A stretch of DNA of 64,000 bases from Prorocentrum cordatum (taxonomy: Eukaryota), in the NCBI GenBank assembly GCA_963575745.1, contig CAUYUJ010000179.1:1-64000 (forward strand), given 5' to 3'. Below the pieces are notes generated by a model. The model had not been told where the DNA came from. It ran no database searches and saw only the letters and a list, made by a program, of their open reading frames with translations. This document shows, in pieces, positions 14,511 through 54,344 of the stretch. Position 1 is the first letter of the stretch. Every line of letters begins with the position of its first letter. Both the position numbers and the translations under genes were made by a program.

Positions 14511-14512
14511 CA

Positions 14513-14548
<36 letters not shown>

Positions 14549-15734: not shown

Positions 15735-15771
15735 GTCTCGCACTGGATATTGCCGAGGGACGGGGTGGTCT
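15735..15771 (+). CDS. NMT: N-myristoyltransferase exon c (3' boundary non-canonical, 15771-15773)
   Basis: AG|G acceptor. Encodes VSHWILPRDGVV(Y), matching NMT E-V-x-H-W-x-L-P-x-x-x-V-V-Y. Confidence 0.88.
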
Positions 15772-16389
15772 ATCCGAGCTGGCCGACGCCTTCCCGCTTC
15801 CTGGGGGCTGCTTCTGCGACGGGGGGGAGGCGGTGGGAAAATATTGGCAAGCAGAGGAAGAGGCGGAGGAGGAGGAGGAGGAGGAGGGGGAGGAGGAGGA
15901 GGAGAAGGAGGAGGAGGAGGAAGAGGAGAAGGAGGAGGAGGAGGAGGAGGAGGAGGGAGATCATGTTAGCCGCACATGCGGTGCAATCCAGCCAAGGGCT
16001 AGGAAAGCTCATGTGAGACTGGGGCGATGACTTCAAGGACCTGATCATTGCCCTTGGCATGGGAGGGATGCATTACCTCTCGAACTCGCTCTACATTTTC
16101 GTGGAGTTGGGCACTGCTTGGGCAACCTCGGCATTCCTCAGCAAGTTTGCCGAGCTGTCCCGATGCAGCCATGCATCCACAAGCCATGCACATGCGCAAC
16201 GTGTGCCTGCAGGGTGGGCCTGCTAATAGTGCACGACCGCCAACACTGCAGCCTGGCTGCGTCCACCAGCTCAGCTTGTCGGCGGGTGACAGGGGGAACC
16301 TGCTCATTAGCAGGATGGAACCTGCTCAGTAGCAGGAGGAGGAGGAGGAGGAGGAGGAGGAGGAGGGATCGCCACCTCAGGGGTGACAG

Positions 16390-16740
16390 GGGGGGACCTC
16401 ACTGTGGCCAAGCGGTCAGTACCTCTCGAGTACACGTGTGGACACTGTACAGGGCAGCTGGCATTACCGCCGGGCTGTGTCCTGGAAGTGCGTACGTATG
16501 GGGCGCATGTGTCAACTGTATGCAGGACCGCTGGCTCTGCCGCCTGGAGGTCAGTACCTCTTGAGTGCATGGGTAGCCAGCATTGCCTCCAGACTGTGCC
16601 CTGGATGTCGATATCTCTTGTGTGCCCGTTTGGAACGTGCGCCGAACCGCTAGCATTGCCTCCGGGCTGTGTCCAGGAGGTCCGTACCTCGTGCGTCCTC
16701 GTGCTGAGTGTGTTCAGGACCGCCATCATCAACGCTGGGC
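16390..16740. repeat. Degenerate copies of the 72-bp minisatellite family also found at 50600-51485
   Basis: GCATT[A/G]CC..CGGGCTGTGTCC[T/A]GGAGGTCAGTACCTC motif. Confidence 0.8.
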
Positions 16741-17359
16741 GTAGTCGTGGAGGTCAGTTCCACTTGTGTATCCTTATCATGCCGCCCCGCTGTTCCCGCT
16801 CCCGCAGGCTGACCTGATGGGCTGATCAGCTGTGCGAGCCAGGCGTCTTCAGATCATTCGTGTGATAGTGGTGCCCCTGTGCGTCTTCAGGTCATCCCTG
16901 CAGGGGGTGTAGAGCAACTTCGGCACAGTGAGCAGCAGGAGGAGGAGAAGGAGGAGGCTGAGGAGGAGAAGGAGGAGTGAGTAGCGATGAGCCAGGCGCG
17001 AAAACAAAGTCGGAGGGGGCGAAGTAGGATAATGAGCAACCGAAATAAGAGGACGAGCAGGGCAATTCATGTATGAGGAGGATCGAAACCACAGTAAACT
17101 GAATAATCCGAAGATGCATCAATTATACTGCAATGCGCCTGCCCGTCTTGAGCCCCCTCCTGTAAGTACGGGACGTGTCCGTTTGAGAATGAACGCCCCA
17201 TGGTCCTTCAATTCAGGCGAGAGCCCTGTCTATACATGTGCCGCCTTCATTCACAATGCATTTTCTCTAAAAGCGTTTGGATATAATCAGAGTGAGGGGG
17301 CCGAACGGCCATTCACTGTCCCTGGGTGGCTGAAGTGCGCTTCCGCGGTGCGGATTGTT

Positions 17360-17997
17360 GATGGTGTTGCTGCTGCTGTTGTTGTTGCTGTTGCTGCTGC
17401 TGTTGTTGTTGTTGTTGTTGTTGGTGTTGGTGTTGGTGTTGGTGCTGTTGCTTATTGTTGCCATTATTGTTGTAGTTGTTGTTGGTGGTGTGGTTGTTGT
17501 TGTGGTTGCTGTTACTGTTGCTGCTTCTGTTGCCGTTGTTGCTGTTGCTGTTGTTGCTGTCGTTGTTGTTGTCGTTGTTGCTGCTTCTGTTGTTATAACT
17601 GTGGCTGTTGTTGTGGCTTTTGTTGTTGTGGTTGTTGTTGCTGTGCTTGTTGTTGTTGTTGTTGTGGTTGTTGAACATTATTACTTCTAAAGAATAATTA
17701 TTGTTGGGCCCCCTGGTGCACGCCCCCCTCGCCGCGCCTAGGCCGCAACCACATTTTCATCATTTTCGTGAGGAAGTCTCAGGCAAAACGGGGGAGTCCG
17801 GATCCGGTTGTTTTGTTGACGCCCGCTTTCCCTGTCAAAAAACAATATAAAATGACATGTCTTGTTCTAACATAACCAAACTTCAAGAATCCCTTGCAAA
17901 AAATAAGGTAAAGTGGACATTCGCGCGCGCAAGACGAAATCCTTCCAAAACCTTAGTTTTCGTAACGATTTTAACATAAAAACATCAAAAAACAAAT

Positions 17998-18030
<33 letters not shown>

Positions 18031-19381
18031 GGTGTTTTGCGAGCAACTTTTTCGAACTTCTGCAACAACGGTTGCGCACCTGCCAGGGCCATCATCCCTG
18101 TCAAATAATACCATGCGGGACACATTCGTTTTTTCTTCGCGCGCGCACGCCGTCGTCGTCGGCCGCGGGGCCCTGAATAGTAGCCACGGTCGTCCGCATG
18201 CCACGAAGTGAAGTGTCCGAACGTCATAGGGCGGGAAGCTGGGTGTGGGTGGTGGCGAAGAGTCGTTTGGAAATTTGGTAGAGCTTGAACCGGCCCCCCC
18301 ACAAAGTGGGGGTATTGCCCGCCTCCTATGAAAACCCTGGCACTGGTGAGAACGGAGTGTCCCCACGTGCTAGTAATTGTTGTTGTTGTTGTTGAACATT
18401 ATTACTTCTAAAGAATAATTATTGTTGGGACCCCTGGTGCGCGACCCCCCCCAAAACCTAGGCCGCAGCTACATTTTCATCATTTTTTAGCGAAAGCTTC
18501 AGAAAAGTGAATTATTACCGGATCCGGTTTTTTGTTGTACTCCGTTTTCCCTTGCAAAAAACACTATAAAATGAAAATTCTTGTTCTTACTTGATCAAAT
18601 TGCAAGAATCTCTTGCAAAAAATAAGGTAAAGTGACATTCGTGCGCGCAAGACGAAATCCTTCCAAAACCTTAGGTTTCGTAACGATTTTAACATAAAAA
18701 CATCAAAAACCCAATGGTTTTTTAAGAAAAAATTGTCAAAATGTTCTTCCGCGCGCTCTTGCGGATTCGTAGGAAAACCAACACTTTTTAAACAATTCTG
18801 TCAAACGGGCTTTTGCGAGCAACTTTTTCGAACTTCTGCGACAACGTTTGCGCACCTGCCAGGGCCATCATCCCTGTCAAATAATACCATGCGGGACATA
18901 TTCGTTTTTTCTTCGCGCGCGCACGCCGAAATCTCCAAAAATCATTGGGTTTTTAAGAATTTTTAGCACCGCGCATCATAAAATCACACGAATCGCACCG
19001 TAGCTCTCCTCTGGCTCTCTGTCTTGCTCTCTCTCTCTCTCTCTCTCTGTCTCTCTGTCTTGCTCTCTCTCTCTCTCTGTCTTGCTCTCATATCATGCGC
19101 AACAAATGCACGATGCGGGGCACATGCGGGGCCCAAACAAGTGATTAACCTCTGCGGGTGTGTACTCCACGCCAGTGTAGTATCCACGATCGTCCGCGCG
19201 CCACGAAGTGAAGTGTCCTGACGTCATAGGGCGGGAAGCTGGGTGTGGGTGGTTCCCGAGAGTCGTGTGGATGTTTGGTAGAGCTTGCATTGCCCCCCCA
19301 CGAAGTGGGGGTATTGGCTGGCGTCGCATGAAAACCCTGGCACTGGGGAGAACACTGAGCGTTCGGGTAAAATGAGTTACG

Positions 19382-19419
<38 letters not shown>

Positions 19420-20949
19420 GAACATTATTAATTCTAAAGAATAATTATTGTTGGGGCCCCTGGTGCGCGCCCCCCCCGCCGCGCCTAGGCCGCAGCCACA
19501 TTTTCATCATTTTCGTGAGGAAGTCTCAGGCAAAACGTGGGTGTCCGGATCCGGTTGTGTTGTTACGATCGGTTTTCCCTTGCAAAAAATATGGCAAAGT
19601 GGACATTTCTTGTTCTAACATAACCAAACTTCAAGAATCCCTTGCAACAAATAAGGTAAAGTGGACATTCGCGCGCGCAAGACGAAATCCTTCCAAAACC
19701 TTAGTGTTCGTAGCGATTTTAACATAAAAACATCAAAAAACCAATGGTTTTTCAAAAACAAAGTGTCAAAATTTCATCCCGCGCGCTCTTGCGGATTTGT
19801 AGGAAACCCAACAATTTTTAAACATTTCTGTCAAACGGGCTTTTGCGAGCAACTTTTTCGAACTTCTGCAACAACGGTTGCGCACCTGCCAGGGCCATCA
19901 TCCCTGTCAAATAATACCATGCGGGACACATTCGTTTTTTCTTCGCGCGCGCACGCCGTCGTCGTCGGCCGCGGGGCCCTGAATAGTAGCCACGGTCGTC
20001 CGCATGCCACGAAGTGAAGTGTCCGAACGTCATAGGGCGGGAAGCTGGGTGTGGGTGGTGGCGAAGAGTCGTTTGGAAATTTGGTAGAGCTTGAACCGGC
20101 CCCCCCACAAAGTGGGGGTATTGCCCGCCTCCTATGAAAACCCTGGCACTGGTGAGAACGGAGTGTCCCCACGTGCTAGTAATTGTTGTTGTTGTTGTTG
20201 TGGTTGTTGCTGTTGTGGTTGTGGTTGTGGTTGTGGTTGTGGTTGTGGTTGTTGTTGTTGTTGCTGTTGTTGTGTTTGTTGTTGTCGTGATTGTTGTGAT
20301 TGTTGTTGTCGTTGTTGTTGGTGGTGTGGTTGTTGTTGCTACTGTTGTTGTTGAATTCTCATTCCTGAAGAATAATTATTGTTGATCCCCCCCACTGGTG
20401 CATACTGTTTTTCTCAATCAAAGTGTGCCCCTCGACGCTCGCACCCTGTTTTTTGACAGGGGAAGTCTTGATGCTCAAACTGGGCCCCTGGCCCCCGGGT
20501 TACAACAACAACAACGGCTCCCGCCTGAGGCTTCCTTGCAATTTAGCCAAGACCCCCGCTCCCGCCCGAGACTTCCTCGCATTTGATTTAGGAATCGCGC
20601 TCTCGCTAGGAACTTCTTTTAATTTATTCAGGAATCGCTCTCCCGGCGCTCTGGAGTCGCGCTCTCGCTGGAGACTTGCTTGCAATTTACTGAAGAATGG
20701 CCTTGCGTTGGAATTTCCTGCAATTTACCCCGCTGTCGCCATTTGGGTCCCCCTCACTGTCCTACGTGGCCCAGTTGCTACCCTCAGTGGCCCCATAGTT
20801 GCCTTCTGTGGCCCCGCATTATCTGCACTTCGTGGCCCCCGCTCGTTCGCGCTCTTCGTGGCCCCATACGCATCCCTTCGTGTCCCCGCTGTCGCCCTTC
20901 GTGGCCTACTTTGTGCCCTTCGTGGCCCTGTTGTCGTTCTCTCTCGCTC
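17360..20949 (-). repeat. Head-to-tail array of 0.7-1 kb repeat modules separated by (GTT)n
   Basis: Shared start (GTT)n-GAA...AAGAATAATTATTGTTG at about 17671, 18392, 19418 and 20351. Confidence 0.85.
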
Positions 20950-21049
20950 NNNNNNNNNNNNNNNNNNNNNNNNNNNNNNNNNNNNNNNNNNNNNNNNNNN
21001 NNNNNNNNNNNNNNNNNNNNNNNNNNNNNNNNNNNNNNNNNNNNNNNNN
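20950..21049. other. Assembly gap (100 N)
   Basis: N run. Confidence 1.
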
Positions 21050-21700
21050 TCATTCGCGGAATCGAATATCCATCCGATCCAGCACTAGCGCGCGCTGGGA
21101 GAACGGATGCCTGTCGGCTTGCTGCTGACAGGCACGCCGATATCGGCAACAAGCCGCGCTGCTGCTTTAAGGGGGGTCCAAGCAAGATCCTCGGCGAACC
21201 CTTCGCTGAACATATCGCCAACGAAATCGAGAAGGTCAACGTCGCATGACAAACGTAGAAGCCGAAGAAGTTCTTTGATGCTAGCGTCATTGATTCCTGA
21301 TGCTGGGGCGAGTCCGAAAGGGGTGAATTCATATCGCCCAAACTGTTGGCGCGTTGCACAATAGAAACCCAGGAGGTCGGCGTCGACTGGATTCCCCTTT
21401 TTATAAAGATATAATAAATAACTAATATTTTTTGTTGGAAAAAAACTGGAGGTCGATGGCGAGCGTGAAGCTGCCGTGCCGGACGCGCGACACAGCCATG
21501 TCCAATGTTCCGTAGGCGACCCCAACTTCAGGGGGCCGTTCATTCACGCGACCTCTCCGGAGGTATAAAATGAATCTTGCCATCGTTCTTGCTCGGGCGC
21601 AGAATCATCGACGCCCCCCCCCTTGGCTTCGAAAGCAAATTGCAAGGATTGATGTTCAACTGCGGTGGGCGCGGCTGACCCCGAGGAAACATGCGCACTT
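21050..21700 (-). pseudogene. Degenerate reverse transcriptase fragment, DIRS/LTR type
   Basis: Minus-strand peptides INPCNLLSKPRGG, RYEFTPFGLAPA, LDFVGDM (degenerate [Y/F]xDD) and LVADIGVPVSSK occur in the usual RT order. Truncated by the N gap. Confidence 0.55.
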
Positions 21701-24094
21701 TGCCCAGACGCCCCAGTCTGTTCCCCTCGGCCTCCGCCCAGGAATCGCCGGCGGCAAGCGAGGGATGATTCGGGGCGCGCTTTGGCGCTCTAGCGGACGG
21801 CGCCCGAGGGCTGCTAGTTGTTGCGCCCCGGTGCGCGCTGCGACAGCGCGCGGCGCGACGCAGACGCACAGTTCCGTGCCGCTCTGCGCGAGCGGACGGC
21901 ACCTGAGCGTCGCAGGGTTGCTTTTGTGACGTAAAGGTCCGCGCTGCGCTGGCGCAAGCTGGCCGTCGCGCAGCGCGACCGGAGCGCGCGTCGACAACGG
22001 GCGCAGATCTCGGCGGCGTGGGGGCGATCAAACCTTCAACCGGGGGGCCGCAAGCGCGCGGCACCACCCCCCGGGCCTGCGCGCGTAGAGGCAATGAAGA
22101 GAGGATGGAAGGTAGAAAAAAAAGGGTATCCGCGAAAACCTCGTTTCCCGAATGCAGAGCCTCCTCAGAAACTACGCTTCCCGTTTTTCGGCGTCCCCAC
22201 GCCCCATGATGGCCCAAGAGCCCTTCAAGAGGGCCCAAGAGGGCGCACGAGGCCCAAGAGGACTCCAAGATGGCCCAAGAGGCCTCCAAGACAGCCCAAG
22301 AAGGCCCCAAGAGAGGCCCCAGGGGAGGAACACGCAACAACAGTTCGAGCCCTCGGCCCTGAGAAGCCCCAGGAATCCCCAAGAGGCTCCTCAGAGGCCC
22401 CAAGAGTCCCCCAACAGGCCCTCAGGAGGCCTCCAAGAGGCCCGCAAGCGCCCCCAGGAAGCACCCCATATGCCCCCGCGAGCACGCAAGCAAGTGCCAA
22501 CGACCCGACGCGTTTAAGAGTTCCTAAGAGGCCACCAAGAGGCCTCCCGAACGAGCTCCCGCAGGCAAAACGCTTCCAGACGGCCCGCGACGCATTCAAA
22601 ACTCCCCCAGTGGCCACCAAGAAACCTCACATGCCGAACGCAAGGCCTGATAAAAACACCCGCCGCCCCTGCAGTTCCGCACCGCGAAAAACCACTCGGT
22701 CAGTCGTCAACGGCACGCAATTATGAGCCGGCGGAATGAGCGAAGCGATTCAATAATCACCAACTTCGGAGAACGCGTCTCAGCGTCCAGGCCAATCAAG
22801 CTTACCCAAATACTCACATGGGGATGCCACCACGCATCTGCGAAGGCCCAACAACAGTAAAAACGCCTCACAGAGCCCACTAGGCCCAAGACGGCCTCCA
22901 TCCAACACCTCGTCACCCCACGAGAACCCAAACAACTGCGACTGCATCGTGAACCCCCCAGGCTGTCCGAACGTAGTGCCACGAAACGCTGCGCATACAG
23001 GAAGAGAAGAGGGAAACACGCAAGAAGGCGAGGTCGCGCCTGGGGGGCGCCCCCGCCGGCATGGGCTGCTGTCGTAGGCAACAGGCAGAAGAATACAGCA
23101 CCGGGTGGGGACCCGAATTTCGGCCACGCCGCCGTTGCTGATGCTGCTGCCCATGCCTCCGACGGCGATCCAACGTGGCCCCTGGAGCTCTGGAACCCTT
23201 GCGTGGCCTTCTTTCTATCCGGAATTGCTGTCTGCCAATCGTACGGCCTGAAAACGGCCCTTGGACGTCGGAATCGGTGCGAAAACTAACCATTGCTTTT
23301 CAATGCGCTAGAGGTATGGGTTTTCCTCCTACTCCTCCGAGTTTCCTTCCTGCGTCTCCACGTCTCTTGGGGGTGATAAAGACGGCGCTGCCACCCCCTG
23401 CTGCTGCATGTGGCTGCTTCTTCTCCTTCTCCTTCGTCTTTGGCCCCTTTCCTTTTTATTTTCTCACCTCCTGCTCCATTTCCGCCTCCACCGTCTTCGT
23501 ACCTTCTGCATCCTCCCCCTTCCGCCTCCTACACCTTCTTCCGCCTCCTCAGCCCGCATCCCTGCTCCACTCCTCCTCCGTATCCGCCTTCTCATCATTC
23601 TCCTCCTCCTGCTCCTAGTCTTCTACCCCTCCTCCTTCTCCTCCTCCTCCTCCACTGTTTTCGTTCTCCTCCTCCTCCTCCTCCTTCTCCACCGTTTTCG
23701 TCCCATCAGACCTTCTCCCTTCTCCTTCGCCGACAGGTGACTCCAGAGGCCCCTGGGGGTCCCCAGCGACTCCTGGACGTCCCTGGAGGCCACAGAGGAC
23801 TCACAATCAAAAAAATACGCAAACAATAGTCCCAAGATTATCGTTGATTATTTTTGAACATTCCTCCTGTAGAGGGACAGGCCCGACTTAGACCTCGACC
23901 CTCAATCTTCGAACTTCGATCCTCCTCCACCTTCCCTTCCCCTCCCCTGGGGGCTTCCCCGTTCCCCTCGTCCCCAAGGCCTGGTGGACCACAATCGGCG
24001 CGGGGGCGCGCCGGGCGATCCTGCGCAAGAAGAGTCAAGGCTCGGGTGGAAGGAGCAGCAGCAGGAGGCGGAGGAAAACAAGAAATATATTGAA

Positions 24095-24212
24095 CAAACC
24101 CACACACGCACACGCACACGCACACGCACACCCACAACAACATGCACACGCACACGCGCACGCACACGCACACGCACACGCACACGCACACGCACGCGCA
24201 CACGCACACGCA

Positions 24213-24278
<66 letters not shown>

Positions 24279-24580
24279 CACGCCCACGCCCACGCCCACG
24301 CCCACGCCCACGCCCACGCCCACGCCCACGCCCACGCCCACGCGCACGCCCACGCCCAGGCCCACGCCCACGCCCGCGCCCACGCCCACGCCCACGCCCA
24401 CCCCACCCCCACGCCCCGCCCACGCCCCACGCCCACGCCCACGCCCACGCCCACGCCCACGCCCACGCCCACGCCCACGCCCACGCCCACGCCCACGCCC
24501 ACGCCCACGCCCACGCCCACGCCCACGCCCACGCACACACACACACACACGCACACACACACACACGCACACACACATAC
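24095..24580. repeat. Hexamer microsatellites (CACACG)n, (CCGACG)n, (CCCACG)n
   Basis: Direct reading. Confidence 0.95.
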
Positions 24581-24581
24581 A

Positions 24582-25460
24582 CATACCTATACGACCACCC
24601 TGCGGGTGATAAGGAGGTTGGGGGGGGTAGGGGCCCAGCAATGGGCAACAGTGGTGAATGTTGTTGTGACAGTGCCAGAGGATAGTTGCGTTGCCGCTCG
24701 CTCTTGGGAGCGTTGGTGTCGAGTTGTTTACGTCACCCTTCGCTCTTTGGCGCCTTGGTACCATTCGGCCCTCCCCCTGGGAACCTGCCCAACTTGCGCA
24801 ACGGCAGCTAACGGCGCCATTTGGCCACAGAAGACTGAAGCGCTGGCAAAGCTTGGCGCAGCCCGCGCCCCCTCTTGCACTATCGATCTCACTATCGATC
24901 TCTTTATCGGTCTCACTCATCGATCTCACTCGATCAATCTCACCATCATCTCATGCCACGGAAGGGAATCATTTGGTCCGGCCGCGCCTCAGCCACACGG
25001 CCACCATCAACAAATTTAAAAACTTCAAAAAATAAAAATCCACATAGAAATAAAAACCAGAGTCAAACATAAAACACCAATAAATCAGGCCAAGGGCCTC
25101 GTTCAGCAAGCGGACACCGGCGGGGTCCGCGGCACCGCTGGGCCCCGGCCGCCCTGAAGGGCAAGGGGGGAGGGAAGGGGGGATCATTTGTCCGGCCCGG
25201 CCGCGCCTGCGCCTCAGCCCACGTGGAACACCAAGCAACCACGTCCAAGAACACAAAAACAAAACAAAAAATAAGCAGCCAGCGGGACACCGGCGGGACA
25301 CCGCGGGCCCCCGGCCGCCCGGAAGGGAGACATTTGGTCCGGCCGCGCCTCAGCCACAGGAGACTTTCTCTCGCACGGCACGCACGAACACGAAACCGAA
25401 ATCGATTTCCCGGTAGGGGGGCTCTCCGTTCCACTTCGATCTCACCCCCCAACCTCCGAC
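24582..25460. repeat. Composite dispersed repeat, copy 2
   Basis: Shares both termini and the GGAAGGGAATCATTTGGTCCGGCCGCGCCTCAGCCAC blocks with 10397-11893. Confidence 0.7.
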
Positions 25461-25484
25461 ACACAGACACACACACACACACAG

Positions 25485-25525
<41 letters not shown>

Positions 25526-26084
25526 CGCACGCACACCATCCAGCGCGGCACGTTCTCCACACAGCAGGGGTTGCGCGCATACCGTACAACGCGGCACATT
25601 CTCCACACAGCAGGGGTGCGCAAGGGGTGGTCCCTGAGCGCGGCGTCTATGCGGGCCAGGGCGCATCCTGTGCGGAACGACGCTCTTGTTCCCCATGTGT
25701 TCCGTGGGGTTATAGTGTTCCTCCCACCCGCGTCGCACCCGCGTCTCACTCACCCACCTGCCTCTATTGTCCCCTCTTCCTCTTCCTTCCTCCCTTCCTC
25801 GCCGCATCCACACGCAACACATGCACGGCACCTACATGAGACACGCGTCGGCATACAGCCGCACACACACGTACACACACCATGCAACGATAGTGCACAC
25901 CTGGCGTGTTCACTGCATCGTACACCAAAGACGTGTGCACCAGATAATGCGCACCCACATGAGACACACGTCCAAATACAGCCCGGCACACAATATACAA
26001 ACACACGCGACACGCAGGCGCAGACCTACTCACTCACATTTCACATGGCGCACACACCACACAACACAGACGCCCAAGACTCGC

Positions 26085-26830
26085 AGGGCGTGGCAGGCGT
26101 GGCATCTGTTCGACACCCGAGGGGGCGTGCAGGGGGTGGTCCCTGAACACGGCCTCTATGCGGGCCATAGCGCAGGGTACGACAAGCACGGCACGTTCTC
26201 GACACCAGCGGTGGTGCTCGGGGGCGGTCCCTGAACGCGGAATTTATGCGGGCCATGGCGCTGGGCACGGCAGGCGTGGTAACTCCTCAACACCAGAGGG
26301 TGTGTGCCAATGGTCCCTGGGCGCGGTCCCTATGCGGGCCATGGCGCAGAGCACAGCAAGCGTGGCACTTTGTCGACACTAGAGGGGGTGCGCGGGCGGT
26401 AGTCCCTGAGCGCGGTCTCTATGCGGGCCGTGGCGCAGGGCACGGCAGGAATGGCACTTTCTGGACACGAGAGGGGGCGCGCAAGAGAACTTCCTCAGCG
26501 CGGTCTCTATGCGGGCCATGGCGCAGGGCACGGCAAGTATGGCACTTTCTTGGCACCAGGGGGAGTGCGCGGGGAATGTTCCCTGAGCGCTGCCTCTATG
26601 CGGCCCATGTCGCAGGGCACGGCAGGCGTGGCACTTTCTCGACACCAGGGGTGGTGCGCGGGGGGGGGGTCCCTGAGCGCGGCCTCTATGCGGGCCATGG
26701 CGCAGGAAACGGCAAGCACGGCACGTTCTCGACACCAACGGTCGTGCGTGGGGGGTGGTTCCTGAGCGCGGCCTTTATGCGGGCCGTGGCGCAGGGTATT
26801 GCAGGCGCGGCACTTTCTCGACACCAGGGG
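26085..26830. repeat. Minisatellite, unit about 89 bp, about 8 copies
   Basis: CCCTGAGCGCGGCCTCTATGCGGGCCATGGCGCAGGGCACGGCA recurs. Confidence 0.9.
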
Positions 26831-29037
26831 TGTGTGCATCGCGCTATCGCTCGAAACTTCCTTGTGACTCATGTTGGATTGACGCTTCAACAACCCGCCC
26901 GCTCGACACGGTCGTCTGGGCCCGCCCGCCTGACCTGCCCGTTCGGGTCCGCCCGTCCGGCCCGCCCGTCTGGTTCTTCCGCTTGTGCTCCTGCTCCTAG
27001 CCCTCCTCCTGCAAATCTCTCTCATGCTCCATCCTCCTCCCTCCCTCTTGTCTCTTTCCTTCTCCCTTCCTTCTCCTGTTTTACCGGCTGCGCCAACTAC
27101 ACGCGGCAGGTAGGGAAGATAGAACCCCCCAAAGGGGTACGATCAAAGACGAAGAAGGCCGGACATCGGGGATTTAGAATATACGCGTTGAGCGGCACGC
27201 GAGCAGAGAAGAGCGAACATTAGTACAACTATTGAATTCCCATTCCAAAACAAACTACTGTTGATCCCAACTGTCTGATGCACATTGTGCTTTTCCAATG
27301 AACGCTCGAGCGAAGGAACATATTGGTGTTCAAACTGGCCCCCTGGTCCCCGGGTTACAAAAACAACGGCTCCCGCCAGATACTTCCTGACATGTTGTTT
27401 CAAAGCCACGCTCTCGCGCGGGACTTCCTCACACTTTCTTCAGGAATCGCGCTCTCGAGTGGGACTTTCATCCAAGTTATTCAGACGCCGTGCCCTCGAG
27501 ACAGATGACTCACGTGATTGCATCCATCGTACTTAAGGACCACATCCCAGAAATAATTTCGAGCACCCAGAACAGTGTCGAAAGAGTGTTGGAATAAAGT
27601 CGAAACGGTGTCGGACGAGTGTCTCCCAGGGCCCGGCACGTGAAAAGCCTGGAGTTTTGGGGTACTGTTCTGGCGCTCGAAATTCTTTCTGGTGATCAAG
27701 GCTAAAGTAGGTTGGAACACCATAAGACTCACGCTCTTCCTTTGGATTTCTGCACGATTTGTTTGGGAGCCGCGATGTCGCTCGGGACTTCCTTGCGACT
27801 CATGCAGGACGCACGCTTCAACAACCCGCCTGTTCGACCTGGCCGCCTCGGCCAGCCCGCCCGACCCGCCCGTTAGGGTCTACCGGATGGATCTGCCCGT
27901 CTGGTTCTGCCACGTGCTTTCTGCTCCAAGCCCACCTTCTGCTACTCTCTCTTTCTCTTGCTCCATCCTCCTCTCTCTCCCTTGCCCCTTCCTTCCATCC
28001 GTCCTCTCCTACCCTGCCTTAGGGGCTGCCCGAAATACGCACTGCAGGTACGAAAAATATACCGATGATAGGGGTACAGTCGAAGACGAAGAGGGCGGGT
28101 ATCGAGAATTTGGGATATACGTTATATACGTGTTGAGTTGCACGCGAGAAATTGACAAGAGCGGGCAGTCTCAAACTGAGTGTTGTTGTTGCTGTTGCTG
28201 TTGCTGTTGCTGTTGTTGTTGCTGTTGTTGTTGTTGTTGCTGTTGTTGTTGTTGTTGTTGTTGTTGTTGAACATTATTACTTCTAAAGAATAATTATTGT
28301 TGGGGCCCCTGGTGCACGACCCCCCCGCCGCGCCTAGGCCGCAGCCTCATTTTCATCATTTTCGTGAGGAAGTCTCAGGCAAAATGGGGGAGTCCGGATC
28401 CGGTTGTGTTGTTACGATCGGTTTTCCCTTGCAAGAAATAAGCTAAAGTGGACATTTCTTGTTCTAACATAACCAAACTTCAAGAATCCCTTGCAAAAAA
28501 TCAGGTAAAGTGGACATTCGCGCGCGCAAGACGAAATCCTTCCAAAACCTTAGTTTTCGTAGCGAGTTTAACATAAAAACATCAAAAAACCAATGGTTTT
28601 TTTTTTTAAAAAAAAAAATGTCAAAATTTCATCCCGCGCGCTCTTGCGGATTCGTAGGAAACCCAACACTTTTTTATCATTTCTGTCAAACGGGCTTTTG
28701 CGAGCAACTTTTTCGAACTTCTGCAACAACGGTTGCGCACCTGCCAGGGCCATCATCCCTGTCAAATAATACCATGCGGGACACATTAGTTTTTTCTTCG
28801 CGCGCGCACGCCGTCGTCGTCGGCCGCGGGGCCCTGAATATTAGCCACGGTCGTCCGCATGCCACGAAGTGAAGTGTCCGAACGTCATAGGGCGGGAAGC
28901 TGGGTGTGGGTGGTGGCGAAGAGTCGTATGGAAATTTGGTAGAGATTGAACCGGCCCCCCCACAAAGTGGGGGTATTGCCCGCCTCCTATGAAAACCCTG
29001 GCACTGGTGAGAACGGAGTGTCCCCACGTGCTAGTAT

Positions 29038-29135
<98 letters not shown>

Positions 29136-31155
29136 GAACCTTAATTACTAAACAATTATTATTGTTGGACCCCCTATATTCGCCCTGGCGCTCTCGCCGA
29201 GGCGCCGGCCGCATTTCCTCTGAAATTGAGGATCACGCTCAAGCGTTTTGGGGTTCCGCCAAAACCGGCTCCCCAACAACAACAACGCTCCGGCTCGAGA
29301 CTTCCTCCTTTTTTACTCGGGCTCGGTGCTCTTGCTCGCCGCCGAGGGCGGCTCCCGGGCCGGACGCCCGGGTCGGCGCTCGAGCCGGCGCCCGGGCGCC
29401 AGAAAATCGAGTTCCGAGGCGGCGCCGAAAAAAAACCATTCCAATACACATTTTTCTTCCGAAAATGCTGAATTTCTGCTTCCGGCGCCCGGGAGGCCGT
29501 CCTGGGCCGATTCCAGAGCCTGGGCCGGCCCGGCTCCCGGGCCGGACGCCCGGGTCGGCGCCCGAGCCGGCGCCCGGGCGCCGGAAAATCGAGTTCCGAG
29601 GCGGCGCCGAAAAAAGGCCATTCCAATACACATTTTTCTTTTGAAAATGCTGAATTTCTGCTTCCGGCGCCCGGGAGGCCGTCCGGGCCGATTCCGGAGC
29701 TCGGGCAGGCACCCGGCCCGGCCGGCACCCGGCCCGGCTCCCGGGCCGGACGACCGGGCAGTTCCGATCGCGCCGAAAAGAGGCCATTCCAATACACATT
29801 TTTCTTTCGAAAATGCTGAATTTCTGCTTGCGGCGCCCGGGAAGCCGTCCTGGGCCGATTCTGGAGCGGCTTTGGGCCGGACGCCCGAGCCGGCGCCCGT
29901 GCGTGGTGCTTCTCTGCTTCTGGCGCCTGCGCAGCTTCCCGAGCCGCTTCTGGAACCATATCTGGGCCGGTCCAGCGATAGGTTTCCTGGATGTGCTGAA
30001 CCATCAAACTTTTTGAGACTTCTGCGTCTCAAGGATAGGGAGAGAAGACATTAAAGGAGGATCCAAAAGCAACGTCGCTATGAACGCTTGGCTGCCACAA
30101 GCCAGTTCTACTTACCTGGACTACTACTACCGTTACCACTACTACTAGTGCTACAGCCGCAACAACAATATCATCAACTGCTGCTACTACAACTACTCAT
30201 CCTTCCTCCCCCTCCTCCCCCTCCCTTCTCCTCCTCCCCCTCCCTATCTCTCTCATCTCCCCCTCCTCTTCCTCTTCCTCTCCCTCTGAGATGCGGGGCA
30301 TGCGCAAGGCGATTGCGAAGGCGATGTGCCGTCCGAGCTATGGATGTTGAAGTTCCTCGGAAGAGGTGGTGGCTAAACCTTCTTGGGCGGGATATCTGGG
30401 TGAGGGAATATCGGATCCCGCATGCCAGAAAAATCCCCCATGATGGGGTGTGTTATCCAGATGGATGCATGTGTCATGTGGAAGCATGGCGCATGAGGGT
30501 AAAATGATTGTTGTTGTTGTTGAACATTATTACTTCTAAAGAATAATTATTGTTGGGACCCCTGGTGCGCGACCCCCCTCCAAAACCTAGGCCGCAGCTA
30601 CATTTTCATCATTTTTTTGCGAAAGCTTCAGAAAAGTGAATTATTACCGGATCCGGTTGTTTTGTTGTACTCCGTTTTCCCTTGCAAAAAACACTATAAA
30701 ATGAAACTTCTTGTTCTTACTTGATCAAATTGCAAGAATCCCTTGCAAAAAATAAGGTAAAGTGGACATTCGTGCGCGCAAGACGAAATCCTTCCAAAAC
30801 CTTAGGTTTCGTAGCGATTTTAACATAAAAACATCAAAAACCCAATGGTTTTTTAAGAAAAAATTGTCAAAATTTTCTTCCGCGCGCTCTTGCGGATTCG
30901 TAGGAAAACCAACACTTTTTAAACAATTCTGTCAAACGGGCTTTTGCGAGCAACTTTTTCGAACTTCTGCGACAACGTTTGCGCACCTGCCAGGGCCATC
31001 ATCCCTGTCAAATAATACCATGCGGGACATATTCGTTTTTTCTTCGCGCGCGCACGCCGAAATCTCCAAAAATCATTGGGTTTTTAAGAATTTTTAGCAC
31101 CGCGCATCATAAAATCACACGAATCGCACCGTAGCTCTCCTCTGGCTCTCTGTCT

Positions 31156-31189
<34 letters not shown>

Positions 31190-31507
31190 GTCTAGCTCTC
31201 TCTCTCTCTCTGTCTTGCTCTCATATCATGCGCAACAAATGCACGATGCGGGGCACATGTGGGGCCCAAACAAGTGATCAACCTCTGCGGGTGTGTACTC
31301 CACGCCAGTGTAGTATCCACGATCGTCCGCGCGCCACGAAGTGAAGTGTCCTGACGTCATAGGGCGGGAAGCTGGGTGTGGGTGGTTCCCGAGAGTCGTG
31401 TGGATGTTTGGTAGAGCTTGCATTGCCCCCCCACGAAGTGGGGGTATTGGCTGGCGTCGCATGAAAACCCTGGCCCTGGGGAGAACACTGAGCGTTCGGG
31501 TAAAATG

Positions 31508-31546
<39 letters not shown>

Positions 31547-34500
31547 GAACATTATTTCTTCTTAAGAATAATTATTGTTGGGACCCCTGGTGCACGACCC
31601 CCCCGCCGCGCCTAAGCCGCAGCCTCATTTTCATCATTTTCGTGAGGAAGTCTCAGGCAAAACGGGGGAGTCCGGATCCGGTTGTGTTGTTACGATCGGT
31701 TTTCCCTTGCAAAAAATAAGCTAAAGTGGACATTTCTTGTTCTAACATAACCAAACTTCAAGAATCCCTTACAACAAATAAGGTAAAGTGGACATTCGCG
31801 CGCGCAAGACGAAATCCTTCCAAAAACTTAGTGTTCGGAACGATTTTAACATAAAAACATCAAAAAACCAATGTTTTTTCAACAAAAAAATGTCAAAATC
31901 TCATCCCGCGCGCTCTTGCGGATTCGTCGGAAAACCAACACTTTTTAAACATTTCTGTCAAACGGGCTTTTGCGAGCAACTTTTCGAACTTCTGCGACAA
32001 CGGTTGCGCACCTGCCAGGGCCATCATCCCTGTCAAATAATACCATGCGGGACACATTCGTTTTTTGCGCGCGCACGCCGTCGTCGTCGGCCGCGGGGCC
32101 CTGAATAGTAGCCACGGTCGTCCGCATGCCTCGAAGTGAAGTGTCCGAACGTCATAGGGCGGGAAGCTGGGTGTGGGTGGTGGCGAAGAGTCGTTTGGAA
32201 ATTTGGTAGAGCTTGAACCGGCCCCCCCACAAAGTGGGGGTATTGCCCGCCTCCTATGAAAACCCTGGCACTGGTGAGAACGGAGTGTCCCCACGTGCTA
32301 GTAATTGTTGTTGTTGTTGTTGTGGTTGTTGCTGTTGTGGTTGTGGTTGTGGTTGTGGTTGTGGTTGTGGTTGTTGTTGTTGTTGCTGTTGTTGTGTTTG
32401 TTGTTGTCGTGATTGTTGTGATTGTTGTTGTCGTTGTTGTTGGTGGTGTGGTTGTTGTTGCTACTGTTGTTGTTGAATTCTCATTCCTGAAGAATAATTA
32501 TTGTTGATCCCCCCCACTGGTGCATACTGTTTTTCTCAATCAAAGTGTGCCCCTCGACGCTCGCACCCTGTTTTTTGACAGGGGAAGTCTTGATGCTCAA
32601 ACTGGGCCCCTGGCCCCCGGGTTACAACAACAACAACGGCTCCCGCCTGAGGCTTCCTTGCAATTTAGCCAAGACCCCCGCTCCCGCCCGAGACTTCCTC
32701 GCATTTGATTTAGGAATCGCGCTCTCGCTAGGAACTTCTTTTAATTTATTCAGGAATCGCTCTCCCGGCGCTCTGGAGTCGCGCTCTCGCTGGAGACTTG
32801 CTTGCAATTTACTGAAGAATGGCCTTGCGTTGGAATTTCCTGCAATTTACCCAAGCGCTGCGCTTCCGACACCCAGGCACCCAGGAGTCGCGCCCATTGT
32901 GGCCCCATGTGCGTGCCCTTCGTGGCCCCGCTGTCGCCATTTGGGTCCCCCTCACTGTCCTACGTGGCCCAGTTGCTACCCTCAGTGGCCCCATAGTTGC
33001 CTTCTGTGGCCCCGCATTATCTGCACTTCGTGGCCCCCGCTCGTTCGCGCTCTTCGTGGCCCCATACGCATTCCCTTCGTGTCCCCGCTGTCGCCCTTCG
33101 TGGCCTACTTCGTGCCCTTCGTGGCCCTGCTGTCGTTCTCTCTCGCTCTCGCTTTCGCTCGTCGTCGCCGTCGTCTTCGACGTCGCCGTCGTCTTCGACT
33201 CCGTCGTCGTCGTCTTCGTCGTCGTCGTGGTCGGTCCCCTGTCCGTCCCTCTTGGGGTCGGGTCGACGGTCCGCGGCCGCCCCGCCGATCAGCGCTGCCG
33301 ATGGCCAGGCCGACGGTCCGCGGCCGCCCCGCCGCTTGTTGGGGCCCGGCCTGCAGGGAAAACAGGTATACCCCCCAAAAGGGGTTCGATCGAAGACGAA
33401 TAGGGCGGGTATCGAGGGTTTCGGAAATACGCGTTATTGGACACTCGAGCATATAAGGGCGAACAGTCTTAAAATTATTGTTGAATTCTCATTCTTAAAG
33501 AATCATTATTGTTGATCCCCCCCCACCGGTGCACATCGATTTTTCAATTGAAGTGCCCCCCCCGGGGCTCGCACTTTGTTTTTTGTCAAGGAAAGTTTTC
33601 CTGCTCAACCTGGCCCCCTGGCCCCCGGGTTACAACAACAACGGCTCCCGCCTGAAATGTCCTTACAATTTAGCCATGACCCCCGCTCCCGCCCGAGACT
33701 TCCTCGCATTTTATTCAAGAATCGCGCTCTCGCTTGGGACTTCCTTACGATTTATTCAGGAATCGCTCCTCCTGCGCTCTGGAGTCGCGCTCTCGGTGGA
33801 GACTTGCTTGCAATTTACTGAAGAATAGCGCCCTTGCGTTGGAATTTCTTGCAATTTACTCAAGCGCCGCGCTCCCGACATCCAGGCACCCAGGAGTCGC
33901 GCTCACGCTTAGGACTCCTTCACAGATTACCTAGGAATCGGGATCTCGCTGCCCTTCGTGGCCCCGTTGCAGCCCTTCGTGGCCCCCTCGCTTTGTTTCG
34001 TGGTCCCGTTGCAGCCCTTCGTGGCCCCCTCGCTTTGTTTCGTGGCCCCGTTGCAGCCCTTCGTGGCCCCCTCGCTTTGTTTCGTGGCCCCGTTGCAGCC
34101 CTTCGTGGCCCCGTTGCAGCCCTTCGTGGCCCCCTCGCTGCCCTTCGTGGTCCCGTTGCAGCCCTTCGTGGCCCCCTCGCTTTGTTTCGTGGCCCCATAT
34201 ATGTATGCCCTTCGTGGCCCCCGCTCGTTCGCGCCCGTGGTGGCCCCATATGCATGCCCTTCGTGGCCCCCTCGCTGCTCTTCGTGTCCCCGTTGCTGCC
34301 CTCAGTGGCCCCGTCCGTACCCTCCGCGGCCCAACATACGTATGCCCTTCGTGGCCCCCGCTCGTTCGCGCCCGTTGTGGCCCCATGTGCATGCCCTTCG
34401 TGGCCCCGCTGTCGCCGTTTGTGGCCCCCTCATTGTCCTACGTGGCCCAGGTGCTACCCTCAGTGGCCCCATCGTTGCCTTCTGTGCCCCCGCATTATCT

Positions 34501-34679
34501 GCACTTCGTGGCCCCCGCTCGTTCGCGCTCTTCGTGGCCCCATACGCATTCCCTTCGTGTCCCCGCTGTCGCCCTTCGTGGCCTACTACGTGCCCTTCGT
34601 GGCCCTGCTGTCGTTCTCTCTCGCTCTCGCTTTCGCTCGTCGTCGCCGTCGTCGTCGTCGTCGTCGCCGTCGTCTTCGA

Positions 34680-34715
<36 letters not shown>

Positions 34716-36270
34716 GTCGGTCCCCTGTCCGTCCCTCTTGGGGTCGGGTCCGACGGTACGCGCCGCCGTGCCGAATCGAGCGCTGGTACGCCCTGGCCAG
34801 CCGCAGAGCCGTCCCGCGTATAGGCCGCCCCGCCGCTTGCCGGGGCCCGGCCTGCAGGGAAGAAAGGTATACCCCCCAAAAGGGTTCGATCGAATACGAA
34901 AAGGGCGGGTATCGAGGGTTTGGGAAATTCGCGTTAGTCGACACTCGAGCAGATAAGGGCGAACAGTCTCAAAATGATTGTTGTTGTTGTTGTCTTTGTT
35001 GTTGAACTCTCATTTCTGAAGAACAATTATTGTGGATCCCCCCACCAGTGCATACTGTTTTTTGTCAATCAAAGTGTGCCCCTCGACGCTCGCACCTTGT
35101 TTATTTTTCAGGGAAAGTCTTGAGGTTCAAACTGGACCCTTGGCCCCCCGGATTATAACAACAACGGCTCCCGCGTGAGACTTCCTCACAATTTAGCCAG
35201 GACCCCCGCTCCCGCCCGAGACTTCCTCGCATTTTATTTAGGAATCGCGCTTTCGCTAGGGACTTCATTTTTATTTATTCAGGATTCGCTCTTCCGGCGT
35301 TCTGGAGTCGCATTTGCTTGCAATTTACTGAAGAATAGCGCCCTTGCGTTGGAATTTCTTGCAATTTATTCAAGCGCCGCGCTCCCGACACCCAGGCACC
35401 CAGGAGTCGCGTTCACGCTCAGGACGATCTCGCTGCCCTTCGTGGCCCCGTTGCAGCCCTTCGTGGCCCCCTCGTTTTGTTTCGTGGCCCCGTTGCAGCC
35501 CTTCGTGCCCCCCTCGCTGCCCTTCGTGGCCCCCTCGCTGCCCTTCGTGGCCTCGTTGCATCCCTCCGTGGCCCCCTCGCTGCCCTTCGTGGCCCCATAT
35601 CTGTATGCCCTTCGTGGCCCCCACTCGTTCGCGCCCGTGGTGGCCCCATATGCATGCCCTTCGTGGCCCCGCTGTCGCTATTCGTGGCCCCCTCGCAGCC
35701 CTTCGTGGCCCCCTCGCTGCCCTCAGTGGCCCCGTCCTTGCCCTCCGCGGCCCAGTATAGGTATGCCCTTCGTGGCCCCCGCTCGTTCGCGCCCGTTGTG
35801 GCCCCATGTGCGTTCCCTTCGTGGCCCCGCTGTCGCCGTTTGTGGCCCCTTCACTGTCCTACGTAGCCTAGTTGGCACCCGCAGTGGCCCCATCGTTGCC
35901 TTCTGTGGCCCCGCATTATCTGCCCTTCGTGGCCCCCGCTCGTTCGCGCTCTTCGTGGCCCCATACGCATTCCCTTCGTGTCCCCGCTGTCGCCCTTCGT
36001 GGCCTACTTCGTGCCCTTCGTGGCTCTGCTGTCGTTCTCTCTCGCTCTCGCTTTCGCTCGTCGTCGTCGTCGCCGTCGTCGTCGTCGCCGTCGTCGTCGT
36101 CGACGTCGTCGTCGTCGTCGTCGTAGTCGGTCCCCTGTCCGTCCCTCTTGGGGTCGGGTCGACGGTCCGCGGCCGCCCCGCCGATCAGCAATGCCGGTGG
36201 CCAGGCTGACGGTCCGCGGTCTGTTTTTTGTTTGTTGTTTGTTGTTTGATGTTTGTGATTTGTTGTCGTC
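26830..36270 (-). repeat. Second array of the same (GTT)n-delimited module families, with internal CTTCGTGGCCCC short repeats
   Basis: Same junction motif at about 27232, 28267, 29134, 30520, 31545, 32473, 33481 and 35002. Near-identical spurious ORFs recur (e.g. 20091 and 32213). Confidence 0.85.
29345..29900. repeat. GC-rich tandem repeat, unit about 175 bp, 3 copies
   Basis: CCATTCCAATACACATTTTTCT..GAAAATGCTGAATTTCTGCTT occurs three times. Confidence 0.9.
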
Positions 36271-36600
36271 GTCCCGCCCGCGACCCGGCCCGCGACCCAC
36301 CCGCGACCCACTCGTGACGCACCCGCGGCGTACCCGCGACCCACCTGTGACCCATTCCCGACACATCCCGCGACCCACCCCCGACCCATCTGCGACAACA
36401 CTGCGACCCGCCCGTAAACCCGCGACCCACGGCGCGACCCGCCCGCGACCTATCCGCGATCCACCCGCGACCCACCCGCGACCCACGCGCGACCCACCCG
36501 CGACCCACGCGCGACCCACGCGCGACCCAGGCGCGACCTACCCGCAACCCACCCCGCAACCCACCCCGCGACCCACCCGCGACCCACCCCACGCCCGCCG
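36270..36600. repeat. CGCGACCCACC short tandem repeat
   Basis: Direct reading. Confidence 0.9.
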
Positions 36601-36682
36601 TCTCAGTCGTATCCGCAACTGCGGTGTGCTAATACTTACGGGCGCTTCAAGAGAGAGAGAAATATAGATAAACAAAAGAAAT

Positions 36683-36722
<40 letters not shown>

Positions 36723-37290
36723 AGAGAGAAATAAAGAGTCAAGCTTCGGGGTCATAAGCGAGAAGGGCGTCTCAAGCGAAGTGCACTGCCCGCCGTGCCG
36801 ACACGTGTGGTGGTCAAAGCAGGGGAAGTTAACTATAAGGAAACAGAAGTTTAGGACGAGGAGGAAATGCTGGAGGAGCAGGATCGGACTCCCCACGTCC
36901 TCCTTCCCCCTCCACCTCCCTCCCACCTACCTGGCACCCCCCTTCCTACCAGTCCTTTCTTCCTGTCTCCTTCTTCCCTCCCGCCCTCCCCCCTCAGCCC
37001 TCCCTTGCCCTGCCGCCCTCGCTCTCCAAGCCTTCCTTCCCCCCCTCTTCCTTCCTGCCCTCCTTCAGCCCCCGCTCCCTGTTCCGCCTCCCTCGCGCCC
37101 CCTTCCTCTCAGTCCTTCCTTCCCTCCCTCTTCTCCCCGCCCTTCCGCCTCTGCCCCTCCCTGTTCTCCCCCCCTCCCCCCTCCCTTTCTGCCCATTCTC
37201 CGCCCTGCCCCTGTCCAGGGGCAGGGGGCAGAAACCTGGCAAGCGGGCGCCCTTGGGGTCGGCCCCCGCTCGAGGGGTGCGGGCCGGCGG

Positions 37291-37322
37291 ATTCCTACGT
37301 CCGCGAGGACGAGCGGGGCGAC
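37291..37322 (+). CDS. NMT: N-myristoyltransferase exon d (5' boundary non-canonical, 37291-37293)
   Basis: Encodes (Y)SYVREDERGD, filling the gap between VVY and [10 protein letters not shown] donor at 37323. No AG at the required acceptor position. Confidence 0.78.
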
Positions 37323-37459
37323 GTAGCGCGGCCGCAGCGGGCGGCCCCGAAACGTCCAGGCGGCAGGGCGAGCGGGGCTCGGCGGAGGCGAGGACCGGAT
37401 CGACCCAGCGGTTTTCCGCCGTCGGGGGCGACTGTCCCAGGGCGGCCGGACAGCTTATA

Positions 37460-37825
37460 CTCCTCTCCTCCTCTCCTCTCCTCTCCTCTCCTCTCCTCTC
37501 CTCTCCTCTCCTCTCCTCTCCTCTCCTCTCCTCTCCTCTCCTCTCCTCTCCTCTCCTCGCCTCTCCTCTCCTCTCCTCTCCTCTCCTCTCCTCTCCTCTC
37601 CTCTCCTCTCCTCTCCTCTCCTCTCCTCTCCNNNNNNNNNNNNNNNNNNNNNNNNNNNNNNNNNNNNNNNNNNNNNNNNNNNNNNNNNNNNNNNNNNNNN
37701 NNNNNNNNNNNNNNNNNNNNNNNNNNNNNNNTCTCCTCTCCTCTCCTCTCCTCTCCTCCCCTCTCCTCTCATCTCCTCTTTCCTGTCTTTTCCACTCCTC
37801 TCCTCTCCTCTCCTCTCCTCTCCTC
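37460..37825. repeat. (CTCTC)n microsatellite spanning an assembly gap
   Basis: Direct reading. Confidence 0.95.
37632..37731. other. Assembly gap (100 N)
   Basis: N run. Confidence 1.

Positions 37826-38999: not shown

Positions 39000-42280
<3,281 letters not shown>

Positions 42281-54245: not shown

Positions 54246-54278
<33 letters not shown>

Positions 54279-54310: not shown

Positions 54311-54344
<34 letters not shown>

Follow-up and report, generated by a model that had tools for sequence, protein, structure and literature searches.

How is a conserved gene expressed when two of its exons are separated by more than 20 kb of sequence that lacks the ends of an ordinary intron? The question is raised by a 64 kb stretch of repeat-rich eukaryotic DNA with a G+C content of ~55% (contig CAUYUJ010000179.1 of Prorocentrum cordatum, positions 1 to 64,000; referred to below as the window). 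It carries, on the + strand, the 3′ half of a dinoflagellate gene for N-myristoyltransferase (NMT), which is normally an essential enzyme. The NMT message requires the exact removal of introns that lack the combination of a 5′ GT, GC or GA with a 3′ AG (G[T/C/A]..AG), one of these introns spanning more than 20 kb. We consider it likely that this long interruption (intron c/d, 15772..37290) is a genuine non-canonical intron, and that it forms a small class with intron f2/g and, less firmly, with intron e'/f of the same gene.

The junction between exons c and d

Exon c ends with ...GTG GTC T/AT CCGAGCTGGCC at 15771/15772 (a slash marks the border), and exon d starts at 37291 with AT TCC TAC GTC, following ...GGGCCGGCGG. 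Joining the two exons yields ...HWILPRDGVVYSYVREDERGD..., which is found exactly in P0006 and with one difference in P0007, two NMT proteins from metatranscriptomes. The dinucleotide AT is duplicated at the borders (15772-73 and 37291-92). Only three registers keep the peptide, namely AT..GG, TC..GA, and CC..AT, and none of them is of the type G[T/C/A]..AG. The sole nearby in-frame AG is at 37273-74 and would add 3 or 9 bases when combined with a GA donor (15759) or a GT donor (15765). The initial annotation had described the letters of both exons, the peptide join, the three registers and the AT duplication, and was correct in every particular on re-reading; it had also named this AG, which is indeed the only in-frame one nearby.

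Use of this junction was examined in transcript-derived sequences. As a cDNA guide we used L001, a contig of 1329 nt from a related species that encodes P0007. Of the 21 public runs listed, 18 contain exon e, and 6 of these are on record as RNA. Contigs of four runs from four studies were aligned to L001 at 80% likeness; the run data are Logan contigs, not reads. Run X5 is on record as polyA metatranscriptomic RNA, and runs X1, X7, and X15 are labelled "RNA?". The latter three have one contig each (records 1, 5, and 18; 1235-1294 nt) which covers L001 21-1190 with 87 differing letters and 0 gaps. Record 15 of X5, a contig of 487 nt, covers L001 813-1288 with 41 differing letters and also 0 gaps.

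In the contigs of all four runs, exon c is joined to exon d without inserted or missing letters. Collinearity with L001, again with 0 gaps, extends across c/d, e'/f, f/f2, and f2/g, the last being covered by the polyA RNA contig of X5 (L001 813-1288). At all 19 differences from L001 that are listed for its positions 821-979, the contigs have the letter of window exons a-e; these include both variants of exon c (L001 909 and 921) and all six of exon d (L001 944, 947, 956, 966, 968, and 971). The absence of gaps together with these window-specific variants indicates that the c/d junction without G[T/C/A]-AG ends is the one in use: a transcript with the exon variants of the window joins c to d precisely. 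The contigs span at least eight intron positions without introns and are thus cDNA-like, even though the RNA status of X1, X7, and X15 is a guess.

That NMT exons flank an interruption of ~21.5 kb without G[T/C/A]..AG ends, as initially annotated, is thus borne out by the boundaries listed below and by the RNA-derived contigs. Contigs of all four runs likewise agree with precise c-to-d splicing alongside ordinary introns in the same gene. A different mRNA junction or an additional exon with canonical ends, the counter-case that the annotation had named, was looked for in the RNA-derived contigs and not observed (0 gaps). Canonical splicing of c/d (GA at 15759 or GT at 15765 with AG at 37273-74) was rejected, as it adds 3 or 9 letters and the contigs have none. 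In the same way, intron e'/f read as GT..AG with an extra Ala codon (GCG) is ruled out by the 0 gaps over L001 21-1190.

The contigs also bear on the ambiguous base at the f2/g junction. The mRNA predicted from the window has 40 mismatches to L001 813-1288, and record 15 of X5 has 41. One mismatch beyond prediction is found in records 8 and 9 of X15, record 23 of X7, and record 15 of X5, and the interval common to these is L001 1217-1246. Since this interval holds the ambiguous junction base, we infer, from mismatch totals rather than from letters, that the f2/g junction reads TAC and not TAT, which favors the register AT..GG or TC..GA.

It was also considered whether exons of different paralogues had been misjoined at an assembly gap. 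This was rejected: all exons a-g match one transcript, and paralogue contigs are far more diverged. According to the contig variants, the exons on either side of both gaps of the window belong to one paralogue.

At least two further, diverged NMT transcripts occur in X1, X7, and X15 (records 3, 4, 6, 7, and 19), with, for example, 113 differing letters over 588 nt. The organism expresses several NMT paralogues.

Gene identity and exon-intron structure

The NMT assignment is based on Pfam and on protein similarity. Stop-to-stop open reading frames (ORFs) were scanned, with a cut-off of 27.9 bits for NMT_C (PF02799). The ORF with exon e (42214-43050) scores 45.1 bits (1.2e-11) and that with exon f (53046-53261) scores 42.1 bits (1e-10), both above cut-off; the match at 12923-13141 in the region of exon b is weak. 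With the exon e piece as protein query, 94 NMTs were retrieved, of which those with a name are from the dinoflagellates Symbiodinium, Effrenium, and Prorocentrum (68-80% identity over the piece). The closest matches, well above these, are P0006 and P0007, which both carry PF02799.

When joined, the nine exon pieces form an open frame of 165 codons plus stop, the predicted C-terminal half of the protein. The 165-residue product is collinear with P0006 and P0007 without gaps and is 94% and 93% identical to them, respectively. At the DNA level, the identity between L001 and the window exons is 85-98% (blastn). No match to the N-terminal NMT domain (PF01233) was found by Pfam among the + strand ORFs of the window, and L001 has no match in the window below its position 786; the upstream NMT exons are outside the window, and RNA-derived contigs with the variants of the window extend over L001 21-1190.

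The 3′ half of the gene is split by nine introns into tiny exons of 11-117 nt, with a coding part of 498 nt. The features are as follows:

2860..2909, + strand: exon a, ...APKLAGVRALRSEDIP-R, preceded by the acceptor ..TCGAG/G; found by tblastn with P0007 and blastn with L001
2910..12978, + strand: intron a/b, GA..AG, AGG repeated at both borders
12979..13045, + strand: exon b, VTELLSGYLKKFPLHPELNLDE, weak Pfam NMT_C match
13046..15734, + strand: intron b/c, GT..AG
15735..15771, + strand: exon c, VSHWILPRDGVV-Y; the AT at 15772-73 is exonic or intronic
15772..37290, + strand: intron c/d, T/ATCCGAGCTGGCC...GGGCCGGCGG/AT, with AT..GG, TC..GA or CC..AT ends; 21,519 nt as assembled
15772..15786, + strand: 5′ terminal arm of c/d, 15772-15776 facing 37292-37288 and 15780-15786 facing 37287-37281
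20950..21049: assembly gap of 100 N in intron c/d
37281..37292, + strand: 3′ terminal arm of c/d, including CCGGCGGA (37284-37291), an 8-mer common to the f2/g acceptor
37291..37322, + strand: exon d, (Y)SYVREDERGD, 32 nt
37323..42378, + strand: intron d/e, GT..AG, containing the second 100-N gap (37632-37731)
42379..42495, + strand: exon e, 39 residues, Pfam NMT_C
42496..42694, + strand: intron e/e', GA..AG, 199 nt
42695..42734, + strand: exon e', 14 residues
42735..53160, + strand: intron e'/f, G/GTCCAGA...CAAGCGG/GT, GT..GG, GGGT at both borders
53161..53239, + strand: exon f, 27 residues, Pfam NMT_C
53240..54945, + strand: intron f/f2, GC..AG
54946..54956, + strand (13 nt when 54957-58 is included): microexon f2, G TTC CTG CAG T, GTTCCTGCAGTAT, encoding FLQY
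54957..58351, + strand: intron f2/g, T/ATCCGCGGGGCCGAG...GGCACCGGCGG/AC, 3395 nt, gap-free
58352(54)..58416, + strand: last exon g, (Y)YLYNWKCPKIDPGGVGLVLL, stop codon TGA at 58414-58416

Note: Exon borders were set by tblastn (P0007), blastn (L001) and direct reading of the letters. The window has two 100-N gaps (20950-21049 and 37632-37731).

Six of the introns, including one seen by the AG/G acceptor before exon a, are of the ordinary dinoflagellate type (5′ GT, GC, or GA with 3′ AG), and most of these show a short border repeat as known from dinoflagellates.

The 13 nt of microexon f2 are identical to L001 1211-1223 and, in the interval from exon f to exon g, are the sole match to a degenerate pattern. 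The encoded FLQY is part of the conserved stretch GDGxLQYYLYNW. Without this microexon, the gene seems to be broken between exons f and g.

A few further observations concern the guide and the remainder of the window. L001 has an in-frame TAG at 564-566 where the listed protein P0007 has Lys; position 564 reads A in all aligned contigs, giving AAG, and the TAG is probably an error or a variant of that one contig. A fragment of a LINE-like retroelement is located inside intron e'/f (45333-47588, + strand; Exo_endo_phos, 5.7e-06, followed by RVT_1, 4.7e-22). Downstream of the NMT stop codon, at ~61.1-63.6 kb, a strict periodicity of 228 nt in the ORF list suggests a long tandem array. ARAGORN detected no tRNA, and no family above cut-off was found by Pfam on minus-strand ORFs outside intron c/d.

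Shared termini of introns c/d, f2/g, and e'/f

Three introns of the gene lack AG at the 3′ end: c/d, f2/g, and e'/f. The termini of f2/g (T/ATCCGCGGGGCCGAG...GGCACCGGCGG/AC) are nearly identical to those of c/d (T/ATCCGAGCTGGCCGAC...GGGCCGGCGG/AT), and the registers are correspondingly AT..GG, TC..GA, or CC..AC, with a border repeat of a single nucleotide (A). Both introns have the donor TATCCG and the acceptor CCGGCGGA. This 8-mer has just four occurrences on the + strand of the 64 kb, two of which are the acceptors of c/d and f2/g. All three introns start with RTCC and end with GCGG, with the full form ATCCG...CCGGCGG in c/d and f2/g. It is the nearly identical termini of f2/g, together with RTCC...GCGG in e'/f, which led us to propose a class. 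That f2/g is gap-free and has the same termini argues against the ends of c/d being an artefact of its gap.

Inside the introns, c/d and f2/g resemble each other over no more than ~25 nt at the 5′ end. The rest of the window, with its ~55 kb of introns, yielded no additional copies of the paired termini. MAFFT alignments of the three sets of intron ends were uninformative.

Pairing of the intron ends

For eight introns, the 5′ end was paired with that intron's own 3′ end, starting at the termini and allowing a slack of 3 nt, and 20,000 random site pairs served as control. Intron c/d has five consecutive Watson-Crick pairs at its termini (15772-76 with 37292-88); in the duplex prediction these are followed by a 2-nt bulge and another seven pairs. 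An alternative pairing has 4 bp, a 2-nt bulge, and 7 bp (one of them G-U). In f2/g, 5 bp at the termini (54958-62 with 58352-48) are followed by interrupted pairs. The terminal Watson-Crick run is at most 2 bp in the other six introns, and at least 5 bp were obtained for 3.8% of the 20,000 random site pairs from the window. As ATCCG and CGGAT are reverse complements, pairing and shared motifs are the same fact and not two.

When the first 30 nt of each of the eight introns are paired with its last 30 nt, c/d (-28.7 kcal/mol) and f2/g (-27.1 kcal/mol) give the two strongest duplexes. GC-matched random pairs have -20.2 +/- 6.5 kcal/mol, so that each of the two introns is at the 8% tail. An uninterrupted inverted repeat of at least 8 nt was not found between the ends of c/d or f2/g. 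The complementary termini described initially are thus real at the very ends (5 bp), and complementarity beyond these is modest.

Contents, length, and origin of intron c/d

The length of 21,519 nt is an assembly figure and spans the 100-N gap at 20950-21049. The 2.6 kb which abut this gap (18380-20949) are ~98% identical to 30508-33148, and these repeats may represent a collapsed or doubled stretch of the assembly. Gap and repeats make the length uncertain. The borders of the intron are in unique sequence, the 5′ one at a distance of 5.2 kb from the gap and the 3′ one at 16.2 kb.

Intron c/d contains microsatellites and minisatellites. A repeat unit of ~1 kb is present in several copies between (TTG)n tracts at 17.5-20.9 kb and 28.2-33.1 kb. 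A 154-nt fragment of large subunit (LSU) rRNA is located at 29954-30107 (- strand; Rfam RF02543, 72.9 bits, model positions 2828-2984); Rfam detected nothing beyond this fragment.

The initial annotation had left open whether the class is defined by structure or derived from a transposon. A class is supported by f2/g and e'/f; an origin from a transposon is without support and was rejected. Pfam revealed no transposase or other family above cut-off in 121 ORFs on both strands of 15772-37290, and its scan of + strand ORFs likewise gave no transposase. The border repeats are unequal in length, with 2 nt in c/d (AT), 1 nt in f2/g (A), and 4 nt in e'/f (GGGT), and hence no target-site duplication of constant length is seen. 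Further copies of the termini are absent from the window.

Proposed mechanism and alternative explanations

We propose that the locus in the window is the template of the mRNA and that the termini act as the recognition signal. Intron c/d would be removed between T/AT and GG/AT, upon which exons c and d join seamlessly. The AUCCG/CGGAU ends of c/d and of f2/g would form a short terminal helix in the transcript. Such a helix may bring both cut sites next to each other no matter how far apart they are (3.4 kb or more than 21 kb). As for the machinery, we favor removal by a tolerant dinoflagellate spliceosome that is aided by the helix. This preference is based on the retention of R-T at +1/+2 and of G at -1, and on intron e'/f (GT..GG, little pairing), which seems to stand midway between ordinary introns and those of the ATCCG type. 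Between the spliceosome and a separate endonuclease-ligase route, we nevertheless regard the balance as about even.

Several points weigh against this interpretation. The class consists of two to three introns of one gene. The wider complementarity of the ends is weak for each intron (8% tail), and the ends of e'/f have almost no terminal pairing. The contigs attest the presence of the joined form but do not speak to the absence of others, and for three of the four runs the RNA status is a guess. The f2/g and e'/f junctions are backed by gap counts and mismatch totals, not by letters.

If the introns are real, they might be removed without a spliceosome, by an endonuclease that recognizes the helix and an RNA ligase, as proposed for euglenids (PMC11282704, excerpt). 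The first and last bases of c/d and f2/g pair over 5 bp with the cut sites at the end of the helix, which would suit such an enzyme, but the helix is just 5 bp long, there are only two cases, and a bulge-helix-bulge geometry was not seen in the duplex prediction of the intron ends. The lack of GT/AG and of a shared polypyrimidine tract also speaks for this route; against it, the positions with R-T (+1/+2) and G (-1) are those read by a spliceosome. Intron e'/f keeps a 5′ GT and has almost no pairing, yet it has RTCC and GCGG, which fits a signal that is read as sequence better than one read as structure. As a full account of the locus, we consider removal by endonuclease and ligase doubtful. 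A further alternative, rated as slightly less probable still and thus unlikely, is that the mRNA comes from an identical NMT copy (tandem duplicate or retrocopy) without interruptions, the copy in the window being dead, with its exons broken up by three large insertions. Multicopy genes are common in dinoflagellates, and the same runs contain two or more other NMT transcripts of greater divergence; but a dead copy with three old, repeat-filled insertions is expected to drift, whereas the exons are near-perfectly identical to the transcript. The mRNA predicted from the window differs from the RNA contig by at most one letter beyond those expected from the guide (40 vs. 41), located in the 30-nt interval with the ambiguous f2/g junction base. 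The direct repeats at the borders (AT, GGGT) are readable as target-site duplications, but they are unequal (2, 1, and 4 nt), and no protein of a transposable element is encoded in the 21.5-kb stretch. Random insertions would be expected to hit the ~55 kb of introns, where no further copies of the termini were found, rather than to fall three times within a coding sequence of 498 nt. For a retrocopy, moreover, the parental mRNA still had to be spliced at the same sites.

An assembly artefact, with c and d being adjacent or separated by an ordinary intron and with odd flanks produced by repeats misjoined at the gap, is very improbable. The 100-N gap and the preceding 2.6 kb, ~98% identical to 30508-33148, make order and length inside the intron unsafe. 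The borders, however, are in unique sequence and separated from the gap by 5.2 and 16.2 kb, exon d is placed between c and e in the right order and orientation, all exons match one transcript, and f2/g has the same termini without a gap.

Implications

Helix-aided removal of c/d and f2/g may extend beyond this gene. Core dinoflagellates with large genomes could have a second, as yet unrecognized intron class, RTCC...GCGG (in full form ATCCG...CCGGCGG) with paired ends, which is removed from essential genes in a helix-guided manner irrespective of length; we put this forward tentatively and with somewhat less than even confidence. If true, the class would be systematically missing from dinoflagellate gene models, because the annotation pipelines consulted all admit GT, GC, or GA with AG alone. 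In the excerpts of dinoflagellate genome papers available to us, mappers and gene predictors had been altered to accept GC and GA donors. Introns of the type RTCC...GCGG would be forced into wrong models, with extra residues, split genes, or "pseudogenes" as the outcome. The terminal signature ATCCG...CCGGCGG (in looser form RTCC...GCGG) makes the number of such introns and their spread over lineages testable on existing genomes and transcriptomes. The same holds for the question whether they form a bridge between the parasite Amoebophrya, with its hairpin-ended introns, and free-living dinoflagellates, and the locus is naturally suited to testing how splice sites meet over very long distances.

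Comparison with known intron systems

U12-type introns have the 5′ consensus RTATCCTT, end with AC or AG, and have a TCCTTAAC branch site nearby. The NMT introns resemble them in having AT followed by TCC at the 5′ end. An assignment to this type was rejected: the introns start with ATCCGAG and ATCCGCG and end with GG, and no motif resembling TCCTTAAC was seen in the last 60 nt.

The papers cited in the following were available as excerpts, and our statements refer to these. The minor spliceosome is reported as absent from other alveolates (Farhat et al., 2021, PMC7789003).

In core dinoflagellates, GC and GA donors and repeated border sequences are known. Dinoflagellate introns have an identical border repeat of 2-9 nt which is kept once in the mRNA, with a 3′ site that is often, though not in every case, AGG (Mendez et al., 2015, PMC5032977). 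An intron of 26 kb is on record (Mendez et al., 2015; Bachvaroff and Place, 2008, PMC2488372), and some "noncanonical" borders with 4-6 identical bases are reported for Amphidinium carterae (Bachvaroff and Place, 2008). The six ordinary NMT introns and also e'/f (GGGT, GT..GG) fit this pattern of PMC5032977 and PMC2488372. Introns c/d (AT) and f2/g (A) differ in having neither the AGG at the 5′ site nor the GG in the repeat, which are always there according to PMC5032977. Neither a terminal inverted repeat nor an ATCCG/CGGCGG motif is described in the excerpts of PMC5032977 and PMC2488372. A literature search, with subscription papers and supplements outside its scope, returned no account of core dinoflagellates with introns of the type AT..GG or RTCC...GCGG.

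Introners of Symbiodinium and Polarella have inverted repeats and target-site duplications at their borders (Roy et al., bioRxiv 10.1101/2020.10.14.339549). These are G[A/C/T]..AG introns, formed from the end of the element plus a target-site duplication of 4 or 8 nt, and occur in families of hundreds. In contrast, c/d and f2/g lack an AG as well as a target-site duplication of constant length, and the window contains no additional copies of them.

Nonconventional introns of euglenids have a pairing of +4..+6 with -8..-6 (CAG/CTG) and are excised as circles (PMC11282704). They share with the NMT introns the non-canonical junctions, the paired ends, repeats that resemble target-site duplications, sizes from tens to thousands of nucleotides, and the presence of conventional introns in the same gene. 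The lineages are unrelated, and circular excision is a feature shown in euglenids. Furthermore, the euglenid pairing fails in c/d when read as AT..GG: CGA is opposed to GCC, with C at +4 facing C at -6, and the pairing of c/d starts at the termini.

The closest parallel within the dinoflagellate lineage is Amoebophrya. In strains A25 and A120, non-canonical introns backed by RNA were studied at sizes of 40-1000 nt; their inverted repeats measure 8-20 nt and their direct repeats 3-5 nt (Farhat et al., 2021, PMC7789003). The genomes of these strains are compact (~100 Mb), and according to the excerpt there is no family-wide terminal motif and no U1 snRNA was found. The NMT introns agree with these in lacking GT/GC/GA-AG borders, in their RNA support, in complementary ends that are able to form an exon-joining hairpin, in direct repeats at the borders which render the register ambiguous, and in the occurrence of canonical introns in the same genome. 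They differ in size (3.4 to more than 21 kb), in being located in a repeat-rich locus whose NMT is nearest to that of core dinoflagellates, in an uninterrupted pairing of 5 bp, and in the sequence-specific termini ATCCG...CCGGCGG. A direct repeat of 3-5 nt as in Amoebophrya is found in e'/f alone (4 nt), c/d having 2 nt and f2/g 1 nt. The NMT introns are paired-end introns of the kind known from Amoebophrya and euglenids, which depart from these in repeat length and in the position of the pairing, and which have a terminal sequence of their own and a far larger size.

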